Counted from the first letter of the stretch, positions 1,094 to 52,633 are shown. The stretch: DNA of 60,081 bases from Eubacteriales bacterium (GCA_045652405.1 JAZRUF010000107.1:1-60081); one strand, 5' to 3'. A program made the numbers and translations. Notes: generated by a model not told the origin, from the letters alone.

Positions 1094-1897
1094 ATGAGCA
1101 TATGCGTTTCGGATATTTACAATGAGCTTAAAAATTACGCACCCCTTGAATACGCGTTGGATTTTGATAACCCCGGTCATTTGGTGGGCGACTTGCGCCA
1201 ACCGGTAGAGCGTGTACTCATCGCGCTTGATGCAACAAGCGCCGTGATAGACGAAGCTTTAAAGAATAATGCACAGCTTATTATTTCCCACCATCCGCTT
1301 ATTTTTAATAAACTCGGCGCAGTGGTAGCTGACGATAGCGTGGCAAGACGCGTAATCCGCCTTATAAAGTCGGATGTTTCGCTCATCTGCATGCATACGA
1401 ATTTAGATGCGGCAGAGGGTGGCGTGAATGACATTCTTGCTGAGAAAATAGGTCTTAGAAACTGCCGTGTGCTGGATGTTCTCGGAACTTGCGAGAACAG
1501 GGAGTACGGCATAGGTCGAGTCGGGGAGCTAAGCCAGGAAGAAGATGTCACGACCTTTTTAAAACGCGTAAAATCCGTTTTAAACGCACCGGGACTGAGA
1601 TATGCGGCATCTGACAGAAAAGTAAAAAAAGTGGCTGTCGGCGGCGGCTCATGCGGTTCATATCTGGAGAAAGTGTATAACATCGGGTGCGATGCGTTTG
1701 TCACCGCGGATGTAAAGCATGATGTTTTCCTTACCGCGCGTGAGCTTGGAGTAACCGTAATTGATGCTGGGCACTTCTCCACGGAAAACCCGGTGTGCAT
1801 GGCGATTGATAAGCGCTTGCGTCAGTGCTTTCCTACGCTTGATGTAAGCATCGCAAAAGCAAACCGCGAACCCGAGGAATTTTATATAGGAGAGTAG
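1094..1897 (+). CDS. Nif3-like dinuclear metal centre protein (YqfO/GTP cyclohydrolase 1 type 2 homologue)
   Basis: Family-typical blocks include DNPGHLVG, ISHHPLIF, MHTNLD and GHFSTE. Confidence 0.85.
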   Translation: MSICVSDIYNELKNYAPLEYALDFDNPGHLVGDLRQPVERVLIALDATSAVIDEALKNNAQLIISHHPLIFNKLGAVVADDSVARRVIRLIKSDVSLICMHTNLDAAEGGVNDILAEKIGLRNCRVLDVLGTCENREYGIGRVGELSQEEDVTTFLKRVKSVLNAPGLRYAASDRKVKKVAVGGGSCGSYLEKVYNIGCDAFVTADVKHDVFLTARELGVTVIDAGHFSTENPVCMAIDKRLRQCFPTLDVSIAKANREPEEFYIGE

Positions 1898-5880: not shown

Positions 5881-6075
5881 TTCAAGCCTAGCTTGAAATC
5901 GTCGATATGAATTCTTACGAATTCTCGATATGTCATAAATGACTCGATATTTGCTAATGCACTCGATATGTCGCTTGCGCGACGAGAATTCATATCATAT
6001 CGAGTTTGACCGAAGGGAAAACATATCGATTTTACAAAGTAAAAATATCGAGCAAACTTTAGTTTGCATATCGAC
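5881..6075. repeat. symmetric array of 4x TCGATAT plus 4x ATATCGA separated by unrelated mini-palindromes
   Basis: TCGATAT starts at 5902, 5925, 5944 and 5963. ATATCGA starts at 5997, 6023, 6045 and 6068. The apex hairpin GTCGC-ttgc-GCGAC is at 5970-5983. Every spacer is a small palindrome (see findings). Confidence 0.85.
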
Positions 6076-37898: not shown

Positions 37899-37938
37899 AA
37901 TAAAAACAAAAAAACTTATAAAAAGTCTGAAATAACTC

Positions 37939-37967
37939 TTGACAATCAGCTCGGAAATCTCTATAAT
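37939..37967 (+). promoter_or_regulatory. consensus sigmaA promoter TTGACA-17-TATAAT
   Basis: An exact hexamer pair lies about 20 nt upstream of tRNA-Pro. Confidence 0.8.
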
Positions 37968-37986
37968 ATAACAAGTGTTGAGACAA

Positions 37987-38063
37987 CGGGTTGTGGCTCA
38001 GTTTGGTAGAGCGCTGCGTTCGGGACGCAGAGGCCGCAGGTTCAAATCCTGTCAACCCGACCA
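37987..38063 (+). tRNA. tRNA-Pro (anticodon CGG), CCA encoded
   Basis: The cloverleaf folds by hand. Acceptor is CGGGTTG/CAACCCG, anticodon arm is CTGCG-ttCGGga-CGCAG, and T-arm is GCAGG-ttcaaat-CCTGT. Confidence 0.95.
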
Positions 38064-38067
38064 AAAT

Positions 38068-38103
38068 AAAGGAATCTCGAAAACCGAGGTTCCTTTGTTT
38101 TTT
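38068..38103 (+). terminator. intrinsic terminator of tRNA-Pro
   Basis: AAAGGAATCTCG-aaaac-CGAGGTTCCTTT followed by GTTTTTT. Confidence 0.85.
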
Positions 38104-38108
38104 GTTTA

Positions 38109-38270
38109 GATTGGGAGGATTTGAACCTTAAGAAGGCATGCGGAGAAAAGCAAAATACTCCGGTGGAGTGTTTTGCCGACGCATGGTGCGAAGACGGGTA
38201 CTGAGCGGTTAAACCGCTCGGTCGTCAAGCAAATAAGACGCGAAGCGGCTGTATCCTGTCAACCCGACCA
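38109..38270 (+). ncRNA. tRNA-3'-end-linked structured element, copy 1 (unclassified candidate ncRNA or miniature element)
   Basis: 5' arm 38116-38128 is the reverse complement of the tRNA-Pro T-arm (13/13). Hairpin A is 38151-38175 and the TGGTGCG box is 38184-38190. The bulged hairpin B GACG-GGT-ACTG...CGGT-CGTC is 38193-38226, and hairpin C (GAA loop) is 38236-38250. The tail 38253-38270 is identical to the last 18 nt of tRNA-Pro. Confidence 0.55.
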
Positions 38271-38274
38271 AAAT

Positions 38275-38310
38275 AAAGGAATCTCGTAAAACGAGGTTCC
38301 TTTGTTTTTT
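38275..38310 (+). terminator. intrinsic terminator (near-duplicate of 38068-38103)
   Basis: It has the same stem as the tRNA-Pro terminator, with 2 substitutions at the loop edge, followed by a T-tract. Confidence 0.8.
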
Positions 38311-38315
38311 GTTTA

Positions 38316-38338
38316 GATTGGGAGGATTTGAACCTTAA
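38316..38338 (+). repeat. truncated second copy of the element 5' arm
   Basis: GATTGGGAGGATTTGAACCTTAA repeats 38109-38131 exactly and then diverges. It belongs to an 86-bp direct repeat (38046-38131 versus 38253-38338). Confidence 0.85.
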
Positions 38339-40027: not shown

Positions 40028-40056
40028 TTGATTTTAAAATAAAGATGTGGTATCAT
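40028..40056 (+). promoter_or_regulatory. sigmaA promoter TTGATT-17-TATCAT with TGn extension
   Basis: It lies about 30 nt upstream of tRNA-Arg. Confidence 0.6.
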
Positions 40057-40088
40057 AATAAAGCTGTCAACAAAACAGCGTGAAAAAT

Positions 40089-40165
40089 GCGCTCGTAGCT
40101 CAGCTGGATAGAGTGACTGGCTACGAACCAGTAGGTCAGGGGTTCGAGTCCCTTCGGGCGCGCCA
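40089..40165 (+). tRNA. tRNA-Arg (anticodon ACG), CCA encoded
   Basis: Acceptor is GCGCTCG/CGGGCGC, anticodon arm is ACTGG-ctACGaa-CCAGT, and T-arm is AGGGG-ttcgagt-CCCTT. Confidence 0.95.
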
Positions 40166-40170
40166 GAAAA

Positions 40171-40197
40171 AGCATCGACTATAGTCGGTGCTGTTTT
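40171..40197 (+). terminator. intrinsic terminator of tRNA-Arg
   Basis: AGCATCGAC-tata-GTCGGTGCT followed by GTTTTGTTTTG. Confidence 0.8.
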
Positions 40198-40216
40198 GTT
40201 TTGTTTTGTAAATGTC

Positions 40217-40378
40217 AGGAAAGGGACTCGAACCCTGAGAGGGCACGAACCGTGAAGCAAAACAGTCCGGTGGACTGTTTTGTAGGTGAGTGGTGCGCAG
40301 ACGGGTACTGAAAGGCAAAGCCTTTCGGTCGTCAAGCAGTGCGGTTGCAAAGCAATCGTTGTCCCTTCGGGCGCGCCA
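40217..40378 (+). ncRNA. tRNA-3'-end-linked structured element, copy 2
   Basis: 5' arm 40221-40235 is the reverse complement of the tRNA-Arg T-arm (15/15). Hairpin A is 40258-40282, the TGGTGCG box is 40291-40297 and hairpin B is 40300-40333. Hairpin C (AAA loop) is 40342-40358. The tail 40361-40378 is identical to the last 18 nt of tRNA-Arg. Confidence 0.55.
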
Positions 40379-46921: not shown

Positions 46922-47043
46922 TTCATAATACCTTCCTTTCAGCGGTTGTCCTTAATACTTATGATAAAAAAGAAGAGTATATGACGTGCCGCCCGAAGCT
47001 GAACGGCGGAATGAAAAAAATTTTATTTTTCTTAAAATAACTC

Positions 47044-47072
47044 TTGTGTTTTTAAAAAATGTGTGATAGAAT
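47044..47072 (+). promoter_or_regulatory. sigmaA promoter TTGTGT-17-TAGAAT with TGn extension
   Basis: It lies about 20 nt upstream of tRNA-Leu(CAG). Confidence 0.6.
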
Positions 47073-47092
47073 ATTAAAGCTGATTATCATTT

Positions 47093-47179
47093 GCGGATAT
47101 GGCGGAATCGGCAGACGCGCTAGATTCAGGTTCTAGTCGGGGCAACTCGGTGGAGGTTCAAGTCCTCTTATCCGCACCA
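47093..47179 (+). tRNA. tRNA-Leu (anticodon CAG), type II, CCA encoded
   Basis: Acceptor is GCGGATA/TATCCGC, anticodon arm is CTAGA-ttCAGgt-TCTAG. It has a long variable arm and the T-arm GGAGG-ttcaagt-CCTCT. Confidence 0.95.
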
Positions 47180-47181
47180 AA

Positions 47182-47214
47182 AGCTACCCATTGAGGGTAG
47201 CTTTTATTTTTTTT
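47182..47214 (+). terminator. intrinsic terminator of tRNA-Leu(CAG)
   Basis: AGCTACCC-attga-GGGTAGCT followed by TTTTATTTTTTTT. Confidence 0.85.
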
Positions 47215-47218
47215 CTTT

Positions 47219-47375
47219 AAAAGAGGACTTGAATCTTAAGAAGGCAACGAGCGTACAAAAAACGATTCATAATCGTTTTTAGCGAAGTTGGTGCGCAGAC
47301 GGGTACTGAAAGGCGCTGCCTTTAGGTCGTCAAGCAAGTAAGACGCGAAGCGACTGTGTCCTCTTATTCGCACCA
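47219..47375 (+). ncRNA. tRNA-3'-end-linked structured element, copy 3
   Basis: 5' arm 47221-47236 is the reverse complement of the tRNA-Leu T-arm (15/16). Hairpin A, at 47258-47280, has a completely different stem sequence from the other copies. The TGGTGCG box is 47289-47295, hairpin B is 47298-47331 and hairpin C (GAA loop) is 47341-47355. The tail 47358-47375 matches 17/18 of the tRNA-Leu(CAG) 3' end. Confidence 0.55.
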
Positions 47376-47380
47376 AAAAC

Positions 47381-47413
47381 GATAAGGTTCTAAAAGAATC
47401 TTGTCTTTTTTTA
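47381..47413 (+). terminator. intrinsic terminator (unrelated in sequence to 47182-47214)
   Basis: GATAAGGTTC-taaaa-GAATCTTGTC (2 G.U pairs) followed by TTTTTTT. Confidence 0.7.
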
Positions 47414-52258: not shown

Positions 52259-52287
52259 TTGACAAATACGATAAAAACAGATATAAT
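52259..52287 (+). promoter_or_regulatory. consensus sigmaA promoter TTGACA-17-TATAAT
   Basis: Exact hexamers lie about 30 nt upstream of tRNA-Leu(GAG). Confidence 0.8.
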
Positions 52288-52318
52288 AGTCCTGCTGCTG
52301 TAAAAATGGCGGCGATGC

Positions 52319-52402
52319 GCGAGTGTGCTGGAACTGGCAGACAGGCACGTTTGAGGGGCGTGTGCTTATGGCGTACGGGTTCAAGTCCCGTCACTCGCAC
52401 CA
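52319..52402 (+). tRNA. tRNA-Leu (anticodon GAG), type II, CCA encoded
   Basis: Acceptor is GCGAGTG/CACTCGC, anticodon arm is CACGT-ttGAGgg-GCGTG. It has a long variable arm and the T-arm ACGGG-ttcaagt-CCCGT. Confidence 0.9.
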
Positions 52403-52405
52403 AAT

Positions 52406-52437
52406 AAAAAAAGAACACCTATGGGTGTTCTTTTTTT
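52406..52437 (+). terminator. intrinsic terminator of tRNA-Leu(GAG)
   Basis: AGAACACC-tatg-GGTGTTCT followed by TTTTTT. Confidence 0.85.
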
Positions 52438-52450
52438 ATTTTATGATATC

Positions 52451-52598
52451 AGAAGGGACTTGAAGCCTAAGAGGGTTTTTGCGTAAAACAAAACAGTCCG
52501 GTGGACTGTTTTGTAGCAAAAAGGTGCGAAGACGGGTACTGCAAAGCGGTCGTCGAGCAAATAGTATGCGAAGCATACGTGTCCCGTCACTCGCACCA
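52451..52598 (+). ncRNA. tRNA-3'-end-linked structured element, copy 4
   Basis: 5' arm 52455-52464 is the reverse complement of the T-loop and T-stem of tRNA-Leu(GAG) (10/10, with partial matches beyond). Hairpin A is 52489-52513 and the GGTGCGA box is 52523-52529. Hairpin B, at 52531-52554, is minimal (ACTGC-aaa-GCGGT). Hairpin C (GAA loop) is 52564-52578. The tail 52581-52598 is identical to the last 18 nt of the tRNA. Confidence 0.55.
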
Positions 52599-52601
52599 AA
52601 T

Positions 52602-52633
52602 AAAAAAAGAACACCTATGGGTGTTCTTTTTTT
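52602..52633 (+). terminator. intrinsic terminator (exact duplicate of 52406-52437)
   Basis: It is part of the 54/54 identical direct repeat 52385-52438 = 52581-52634. Confidence 0.85.

Follow-up and report, generated by a model that had tools for sequence, protein, structure and literature searches.

The subject of this report is a stretch of DNA of 60,081 nucleotides (nt) from an Eubacteriales bacterium (GCA_045652405.1, JAZRUF010000107.1:1-60081; henceforth the window), in which a small repeated element stands behind each of four tRNA genes. We show that this is a site-specific, protein-less insertion element that brings its own terminator, carries a reverse-complement copy of the tRNA T-arm (the anti-T-arm, or 5' arm) and a core structured on the plus strand, and is bounded by an 18-nt target duplication. 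The elements constitute a hitherto undescribed protein-less family that is specific to the 3' ends of tRNA and transfer-messenger RNA (tmRNA) genes in Clostridia. The reading that we consider probable as a whole is that of a small family of insertion elements at tRNA and tmRNA 3' ends, for which copying of a read-through RNA is the favoured route of spread. An earlier interpretation of the window (the original prediction) had described a 5' arm and a GGTGCG box, both complementary to a tRNA-derived tail and jointly closing a cloverleaf-like fold. It is half right in detail, and it leads to an element family that had not been described.

All four tRNA genes of the window lie on the plus strand and were called intact by ARAGORN, and the same order recurs behind each of them: a terminator hairpin, a segment containing the 19-nt core sequence GGTGCGMAGACGGGTACTG, and a copy of the tRNA 3' end. 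This core sequence occurs exactly four times in the window, against 0.01 occurrences expected by chance, and each time lies 110-126 nt downstream of a tRNA 3' end. Read 5' to 3' on the tRNA strand, an element consists of its own terminator, a short A/T spacer, the anti-T-arm and a multi-hairpin core (P1, P2 with hairpin A, P3-P4-P5 with hairpin B, and hairpin C), and it measures about 190-205 nt without encoding a protein.

An exact-pattern search over one genome per species yielded 87 loci. Of the hits, 78 are true elements, all in metagenome-assembled genomes (MAGs) of uncultured Clostridia from the Oscillospiraceae, Acutalibacteraceae, Congzhengia and 'Eubacteriales', and the remainder are chance matches in coding DNA of other phyla. 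A metagenome scan run without requiring the box contributed extra copies, box variants among them. About 90 copies were found in Clostridia MAGs; the viral-contig, plasmid and phage collections that we searched held no copy. The box is located 109-135 nt past the end of a tRNA gene on the same strand, which is always the last tRNA of its cluster where upstream DNA is available. These tRNAs cover 13 isotypes (Pro, Ser, Arg, Ala, Glu, Lys, Gln, Trp, Leu, His, Met, Asp, Thr), and two copies stand behind tmRNA genes. Among the fetched loci, a sample biased because loci were chosen for having the element, 71 of 82 cluster-final tRNAs carry it. All-against-all clustering of open reading frames (ORFs) within 3.5 kb of 83 loci revealed no recurrent linked protein, with the best cluster reaching 6 of 83. 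Rfam searches at the gathering threshold and at E<=10 returned tRNA matches only, none overlapping the core, and a full-text search of the literature found no description of the family. Tandem arrays are present at three loci (L006, L054, L081), one copy is truncated at its 5' end (L074), and about 12 loci contain partial distal units that are truncated at the 3' end and retain the 5' part. In the window, the tail of copy 1 is followed by a second terminator copy, a spacer and a solo arm (38271-38327; 67 of 73 nt identical) that end inside P1 after CCTTAA; this segment is a truncated second unit.

Evidence for insertion comes from the related MAG JAZTXE, whose neighbouring proteins are 89% identical to those of the window. 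Copies 1 and 2 are present in this genome (L070 and L023), and copies 3 and 4 are missing. At its empty site for copy 3 (L116), tRNA-Leu(CAG) is directly followed by the terminator that the window has past the tail, and the window contains an extra block right after the CCA that comprises a new terminator, spacer, arm, core and 18-nt tail. The comparison of filled and empty site shows an 18-nt target duplication, an origin of the tail that the original prediction had overlooked. At copy 4, comparison with L112 gives about 196 extra nt in the window (52403-52598), read from a repeat-bounded gap, and the extra segment lies between two direct repeats of about 53 nt that contain tail and terminator. 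No empty site for copy 2 was found through GlnA synteny, which is not conserved.

In 47 of 56 cases across the family, the tail reproduces the final 17-18 nt of the tRNA beside it, and its left boundary falls sharply at T-loop position 59. The exceptions are truncated copies, two elements with arms from another tRNA-Met, and a chimera with a Pro arm and a Gln tail (L042). At two tRNA genes that lack an encoded CCA (L034, L026), the repeat appears to stop at the discriminator. The tail behaves as a target-site duplication of 18 nt (positions 59-76) that arises on insertion: with the last 18 nt from position 59 to A76 duplicated, the tRNA gene stays intact, and the left end of the element falls where the tRNA ends. 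The repeat takes in the terminator at 22 of 50 loci, which we explain by tandem insertion.

Movement between different tRNA genes is suggested by a unit of terminator, spacer, arm and core that is nearly identical behind tRNA-Pro(TGG) in L006 and behind tRNA-Leu(TAG) in L079. The two tRNAs have a common T-arm and different acceptors, and each tail carries the local acceptor sequence. A terminator 93% identical to that of copy 4 stands behind a tRNA-Met of a different MAG; judged by such similarities, terminators travel with the element. A long target duplication including the native terminator was therefore discarded as a general rule, the upstream terminator of copy 3 being foreign to its site. 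Two further observations concern the exchange of parts. Locus L042 (~1380-1700, plus strand) holds a chimera of a tRNA-Pro-type arm, a core, a tRNA-Gln tail, a Gln terminator and a solo Gln arm, which implies recombination between copies at different loci and thus genome rearrangement. At L037 and L083, arm and tail (GTCCCCGAAGMTCCACCA) match a tRNA-Met other than the adjacent one, and the block from terminator to tail is kept in four MAGs with differing upstream contexts.

Pairing within the element was tested on 45 homologues (alignment A2). The complementarity between the 5' arm and the T-stem part of the tail, on which the original prediction was built, is real and above chance; the segments quoted for copy 3 (AAGAGGAC at 47221-47228, TGGTGCG at 47289-47295 and the tail GTCCTCTTATTCGCACCA at 47358-47375) are correct, and the other copies are as claimed. 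In the arm:tail helix, 86.7% of cells are paired and double changes occur at five of seven pairs; columns 59-63 are paired in 87-100% of sequences with both sides changing (CG25/UA13; GC29/AU13). Arms are complementary to their own tails at 6.08 of 7 positions as compared with 5.25 for swapped tails (z=8.3), i.e., the arm tracks the tail in homologues. RNAalifold retains three central arm:tail pairs, and the minimum-free-energy fold of copy 3 as a single sequence closes with all 8 base pairs (bp) of this helix. From these models we infer that the element RNA is closed by a helix between the anti-T-arm and the T-stem half of the tail.

As an anti-tail, the arm was correctly recognized insofar as complementarity tracks across about 50 homologues, but it spans the whole T-arm, including positions 51-58 that lie outside the tail. 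Reverse-complemented, it reads tRNA positions 51 to about 64, which cover the T-stem 5' strand, the T-loop and the T-stem 3' strand. The match of arms to their own tRNA compared with permuted tRNAs was 0.93 versus 0.63 at position 51, 0.92 versus 0.53 at position 57, 0.80 versus 0.43 at position 59 and 0.86 versus 0.54 at position 63; it was about 0.5 versus 0.3-0.4 at positions 64-66 and at background for both at positions 67-76. Since the arm tracks positions 51-58, the tail cannot be its sole partner or source, and the two segments are complementary because both are T-arm sequence. Arm position 57' covaries with the first base of the P1 loop (C:G 30, U:A 19, one exception) and position 51' with the P1 3' strand, so the 3' half of the arm has internal partners too. 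The fallback offered originally, pairing in trans with the real tRNA or its gene, gains some support for the arm only, through the tracking of positions 51-58. Two candidate origins of the arm were rejected: no inverted T-arm exists downstream of element-free tRNA sites, which excludes one already present at empty sites, and the spacer carries no trace of positions 65-76 even in close copies, which speaks against the arm being a decayed full inverted copy of positions 51-76 formed by fold-back at the terminator.

The proposed second half of the anti-tail, the GGTGCG box, could not be upheld: it is essentially invariant while acceptor ends differ over the 13 isotypes, and it remains so even where it cannot pair, an observation that the original prediction had itself named as weakening. 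Pairing of the box with the acceptor and CCA end does exist in copies 2-4, but it is not a conserved pairing. G1-C75 (45/45) and G2-C74 (44/45) are uninformative because both sides are essentially invariant, and the further positions are paired in 43/45 (U3-N73, N73 being A or G), 33/43 (G4-N72), 18/45 (C5-N71) and 39/45 (G6-N70). The variable position M, which had been thought to follow the tail, is paired in only 14/45 (M7-N69). Comparison of own with swapped tails detected no own-tail-specific complementarity at the box, and none of its pairs with the acceptor showed informative covariation in the alignment. Box variants include GATGCG, GGTGTG and GTGTG, with M deleted in some, and the G2-to-A variants would break the pair with the invariant C74. 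The partners of the box are local: P2 is closed by G1 (CG40/UG5, 100% paired), and U3G4C5 forms helix P3 with GCA from CAAGCA in 45/45, including one G.U. In the minimum-free-energy fold of copy 2, GGUGCGC is paired with GCGCGCC of the GC-rich Arg acceptor, which is a trait of that sequence and not of the family. According to the covariation model, the box belongs to local helices and is no anti-acceptor; only a generic match of GGU(G) to (Y)RCC holds.

The core between arm and tail shows strong signs of a folded RNA. A local model of P1, P2 with hairpin A, P3, P4, and P5 with hairpin B has 87.5% of cells paired, as compared with 74.6% in shuffled alignments and 37-45% with slid partners, and its covariation score of 0.303 (versus 0.109) was reached by 0 of 500 shuffles. 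RNAalifold predicts the arm:tail helix and P1, P2, P3, P4 and P5. Covariation is found in P1, in P2 with hairpin A (outer P2 pairs AU31/UA10/GC3 and AU16/CG12/UA9/GC5) and in P5 with hairpin B. P3 is invariant, as is P4 in the alignment, with compensatory GUCG/CGAC in three divergent copies and GAUG/CAUC in L113. In copy 3, P5 is ACUG/AGGU with the first 3' base unpaired, where the family has CGGU. The invariant U.G in P5 and the other G.U pairs indicate that the plus strand is the folded strand; a tRNA- or tmRNA-like RNA from the minus strand was rejected because these pairs would become A.C and because the arm lacks an acceptor complement. The predicted cloverleaf-like junction survives to the extent that the arm:tail helix joins the ends around three hairpin domains (hairpin C seen by eye only), but binding of the CCA end by the box is not supported. 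If movement is confirmed, the element is likely a new structured RNA class outside Rfam.

Table 1. Features of copy 3, its target gene and the other three copies in the window.
Feature	Position	Strand	Evidence
tRNA-Leu(CAG), target gene of copy 3, intact	47093..47179	+	ARAGORN; Rfam tRNA 54.4 bits
Copy 3 element-borne terminator hairpin (gctaccc attg agggtagc + T-tract) and short A/T spacer	47180..47220	+	missing from orthologous empty site L116
Copy 3 5' arm AAGAGGACTTGAATCT, reverse complement of tRNA positions 51-66 with one mismatch	47221..47236	+	position-wise tracking against own tRNA
Copy 3 mini-hairpin P1 (UCUU-AAG-AAGG); 5' strand is the arm end; loop R covaries with arm position 57'	47234..47244	+	93.9% of cells paired, 3 covarying pairs
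Copy 3 helix P2 around hairpin A; P2 3' strand ends in G1 of the GGTGCG box	47245..47290	+	covariation, RNAalifold
Copy 3 conserved core hairpin: GGUGCG-C-A, P4 (GACG/CGUC), GGU bulge, P5 with hairpin B, CAAGCA	47290..47336	+	covariation model, RNAalifold
Copy 3 hairpin C (GACGC-GAA-GCGaC type) and UGU linker	47337..47357	+	seen in alignments by eye; sequence variable
Copy 3 tail, direct copy of tRNA positions 59-76 with one C>T at 47368	47358..47375	+	tail comparison; empty site
Native terminator, directly 3' of copy 3 tail	47376-47412	+	same terminator at empty site
Copy 1, behind tRNA-Pro(CGG) 37987-38063; arm 38113-38128; box 38185-38191; tail 38253-38270	38064..38270	+	
Copy 2, behind tRNA-Arg(ACG) 40089-40165; arm 40221-40235; box 40292-40298; tail 40361-40378	40166..40378	+	
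Copy 4, behind tRNA-Leu(GAG) 52319-52402; arm 52455-52467; box 52523-52529; tail 52581-52598	52403..52598	+	
Copy 4 terminator, repeated	52599-52633		

The single substitution in the tail of copy 3 corresponds to tRNA position 69, is the only tail mismatch in the window and also differs from the tRNA at the empty site. Judged by eye and not by a scan, each tRNA gene of the window appears to have its own sigma-70-like promoter (ttgaca/ttgtgt ... tataat) no more than about 50 nt upstream (37930-37970, 40030-40060, 47040-47075 and 52260-52290), and between terminator and element no promoter-like sequence was evident. The flanks of the window hold housekeeping genes, and an exact-protein look-up of a neighbour of 190 amino acids returned no record.

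How such an element might spread can be outlined as follows. Read-through transcription starting at the tRNA promoter would yield an RNA that spans from just past one tRNA 3' end to the next CCA, and this RNA would be copied back into DNA at a tRNA gene by a mobilising enzyme acting in trans. Together, the tRNA-derived tail and the anti-T-arm would provide the homology that selects a T-arm-matching target, as suggested by movement between tRNAs that have a common T-arm and acceptors free to differ, and the new tail would be supplied by the target itself. That the RNA intermediate is copied by target-primed synthesis, with the new tail made from the target strand, is speculative and on balance somewhat unlikely. 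We regard as doubtful the most far-reaching version, a protein-less, RNA-guided and tRNA-gene-specific bacterial retroelement that guides itself, resembles short interspersed nuclear elements (SINEs) and is moved by an unlinked reverse transcriptase. In that version, the RNA would be freed by tRNA 3'-end processing and would end in a copy of the tRNA 3' end; its tail would pair with the antisense strand of positions 59-76 and its anti-T-arm with the sense strand of positions 51-64, and it would be copied into DNA at a nick, each insertion remaking the 18-nt tail from the target. To our knowledge, no retroelement of this kind has been described in bacteria.

Several points weigh against insertion through a read-through RNA. 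The upstream hairpin looks like a genuine terminator, so that expression needs read-through, and no responsible reverse transcriptase, transposase or recombinase was identified. Target-primed reverse transcription predicts 5' truncation, and the 12 loci with partial units that retain the 5' part would thus need secondary deletions. The match of the arm to positions 51-58 could reflect copying of the target rather than guiding. Gain is inseparable from precise loss, as recombination between direct repeats would also yield 'empty' sites; that of copy 4 has the element's own terminator and could be what an excision left behind instead of a site never occupied. Elements differ from one another in a mosaic of central modules (e.g., L007 versus L072), so that high core identity is partly due to recombination or constraint and not to recent movement alone. 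Finally, the terminator-including repeats that we assign to tandem insertion would also be produced by other routes.

Among the alternatives, spread at the DNA level without an RNA is unlikely. A transposase cutting with an 18-bp stagger (58|59, 76|77), or template switching on microhomology in T-arm and T-tract, would account for the fixed length of the duplication, 18 nt here and about 22-23 nt in two sister families whose cores are different; chimeric elements such as that in L042 show that copies recombine, and inverted tRNA fragments beside some arrays (L077, L006) are typical of fold-back or template-switch events. A stagger of 18-23 bp is, however, beyond the usual range of DDE transposases, and the repeats at the CCA-less genes, two cases only, seem to end at the discriminator, which points to the tRNA end rather than a ruler. 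This explanation also gives no role to the strong RNA-type covariation of the core. A resident, non-mobile trailer RNA that is inherited with the tRNA operon, serving as a 3'-trailer small RNA (sRNA) or as a processing or termination module with tRNA-like arms that stem from local duplication and stay matched through gene conversion, would fit the very high occupancy (four of four tRNA units in the window, besides the cluster ends counted above), the structured and conserved core, and the finding that tails have fewer mismatches than the adjacent duplicated terminator (1.5% versus 4.2%, p=0.015). We consider it quite unlikely given that presence varies between close relatives at two loci, that an identical unit including its terminator stands behind different tRNAs in different genomes, and that tandem and truncated copies exist; moreover, the other tRNAs of a cluster find no match in the arms, which gives no sign of a tRNA-specific service to the operon.

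A very unlikely origin is a mini-island dependent on an integrase, in which an attP-only remnant akin to cis-mobilizable elements (CIMEs) moves as a DNA circle with a tyrosine integrase supplied in trans, the repeats being the attL and attR cores and the conserved core containing protein-binding arm sites. The 3' ends of tRNA and tmRNA genes are classic integrase targets, and the direct repeats that begin in the T-loop, the tandem arrays, the roughly attP-sized space between repeats and the integrase-bearing islands on the same tRNAs (L054, L036) would all agree with it. Yet integrases are tRNA-specific, whereas one core serves 13 isotypes; the unit shared by the Pro and Leu loci has local acceptor tails and intact tRNAs, where a crossover in a carried 59-76 segment would make chimeric tRNAs. 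Hairpins that vary in sequence but change in a compensatory way, and whose G.U pairs can form on one strand only, are signs of a folded single strand rather than duplex sites, and no integrase is linked at the 83 loci. The structure originally envisaged, a cloverleaf-like tRNA mimic whose two anti-tail segments hide the CCA end or bind the cognate tRNA in trans, is highly improbable. Its strengths are the conserved arm:tail helix, the copy 2 fold that joins box and acceptor, and the ability of GGU(G) to match (Y)RCC of nearly any tRNA, with G1, G2 and U3 paired in 43-45/45. Set against these, C5-N71 and M7-N69 pair in a minority of sequences and show no informative covariation, the box has no specificity for its own tail and occurs in G2-to-A variants, its fully conserved local partners are the ones chosen by RNAalifold, and proline and glutamine tails cannot take the helix past 3 bp. 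We favour a protein-less insertion element that is copied from a read-through RNA.

Compared with known systems, the element shares with tRNA-targeting islands, prophages and CIMEs the site, the intact gene, tandem accretion and a direct repeat that begins in the T-loop, the 18-nt repeat being present in the 47 of 56 cases noted above with tRNAs intact. It differs in having about 200 nt and no gene, integrase or otherwise (the best protein cluster staying at 6/83), and the identity of its repeat is not borne by the element as an attP would be: one unit lies behind Pro and Leu tRNAs with the acceptor part following the local tRNA. One core at 13 isotypes, the added inverted T-arm copy and the RNA-type folded core are further differences. 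SINEs and other elements that move by target-primed reverse transcription, including Dictyostelium TRE, are likewise short, non-coding and multi-copy with a borrowed promoter and tRNA-related sequence; their target duplications in the range of 15-20 bp have a counterpart in the 18 nt seen between filled and empty copy 3 sites, and L074 is a 5'-truncated copy. The present element is bacterial, has no known partner reverse transcriptase and no A-rich tail, its insertion point and duplication are set by the T-loop and 3' end of the tRNA, and the signs of an RNA intermediate are indirect, namely the strand-specific RNA-type covariation and the position of the left end at the tRNA 3' end. Repeats resembling miniature inverted-repeat transposable elements (Correia/CREE, RUP, BOX, ERIC, REP/BIME) are also small, non-coding, intergenic, co-transcribed and foldable as RNA. 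Their terminal inverted repeats are specific to each element, their duplications are short and they show no specificity for tRNAs, unlike the present family, in which ends are not conserved between copies, the sole inverted repeat is tRNA-derived and locus-specific, and the site is one defined nucleotide.

The bridge (seek) RNAs of IS110/IS1111 resemble the element in that separate segments match both strands of the target, here the arm the sense T-arm and the tail antisense 59-76. They have an adjacent recombinase, whereas no linked ORF family, no sequence or Rfam similarity and no counterpart of the donor-binding loop was found for the element, whose tail is an insertion product and not a programmed guide. 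Motifs that bind the NCCA end (the T-box UGGN bulge, RNase P L15 GGU) are similar in that the box GGU(G) could pair with (Y)RCC of any tRNA; in contrast to a T-box, the box is invariant against A73 and G73 tails, lacks covariation with discriminator or acceptor and is accompanied by no specifier-like element. sRNAs from tRNA 3' trailers (3'ETS-leuZ) would have the same source, the 3' external spacer of a tRNA transcript, but are locus-specific and not a repeated structured family with a copy of the tRNA end. Retron-like non-coding RNAs, IS200/IS605 palindrome-associated transposable elements, integron attC sites and Xer/IMEX systems were set aside given the absence of an adjacent reverse transcriptase or TnpA and unfitting end structures.

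Related sequences were noted at several loci. Two sister core types have the same layout of terminator, reverse complement of T-loop and T-stem 3' strand, core and direct copy of the tRNA end; they lie behind tRNA-Arg (208-284) at L075:285-430 and behind tRNA-Pro (1841-1915) at L101:1916-2090, both on the plus strand. Their tails begin at position 54/55 rather than 59, the L101 type is tandem, and a hairpin of the L075 core (GACAGCCCGGTGGGCTGTC) resembles hairpin A. A distinct non-coding element of about 300 nt directly follows a CCA end, belonging either to a tRNA or to the tail of an element (L026 ~75-325, L047, L065, L084, and L041 past tRNA-Tyr 1678-1762). It starts with its own terminator (GAAAAAAGCA...TTTTTTCAACGAAATAAATCC), ends in ...GTTCGGCTCTTCCA and contains many short hairpins spaced by ATTTCA(C/T) or AATATCACT iterons. 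Two conserved terminator-like modules, CGTCGAAGCAAAGTYCGCTTTGCTTCGATTTTTTTATGCAAAAA (L017, L037, L050, L086, L104) and GTTAAAAACCGCTTAACCAATAGGGTTAGGCGGTTTTTACGTT (L002, L018, L036, L047), directly follow the tail CCA at different tRNAs and in different MAGs; the tail itself may serve as a landing site. On the minus strand of L077, a decayed reverse complement of tRNA-Lys positions 10-74 lies about 15-75 nt past the tail, and at the distal end of L006 (~5990-6060) the last arm runs on as reverse-complement tRNA-Pro plus an anticodon-arm palindrome. At L054 and L036, a tyrosine-recombinase gene ends just upstream of an incomplete tRNA-Lys whose sequence begins within the anticodon loop; these are ordinary integrase islands in a tRNA gene that also carries the small element.

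In a widespread group of gut Clostridia, the classic landing site of islands is occupied, at most tRNA operons, by a gene-less element of 200 nt. Its duplicated tails and extra terminators can mislead the annotation of tRNAs, att sites and islands in MAGs. If movement is confirmed, the family would represent a new route to nucleotide-precise, tRNA-specific insertion and, given the chimeric copies, a source of genome rearrangement. With its strict limits at 59 and 76, the duplicated segment corresponds to the 18-nt 3' tRNA fragment used as a primer by retroviruses, which makes tRNA-linked retro-mobility in bacteria a testable question.

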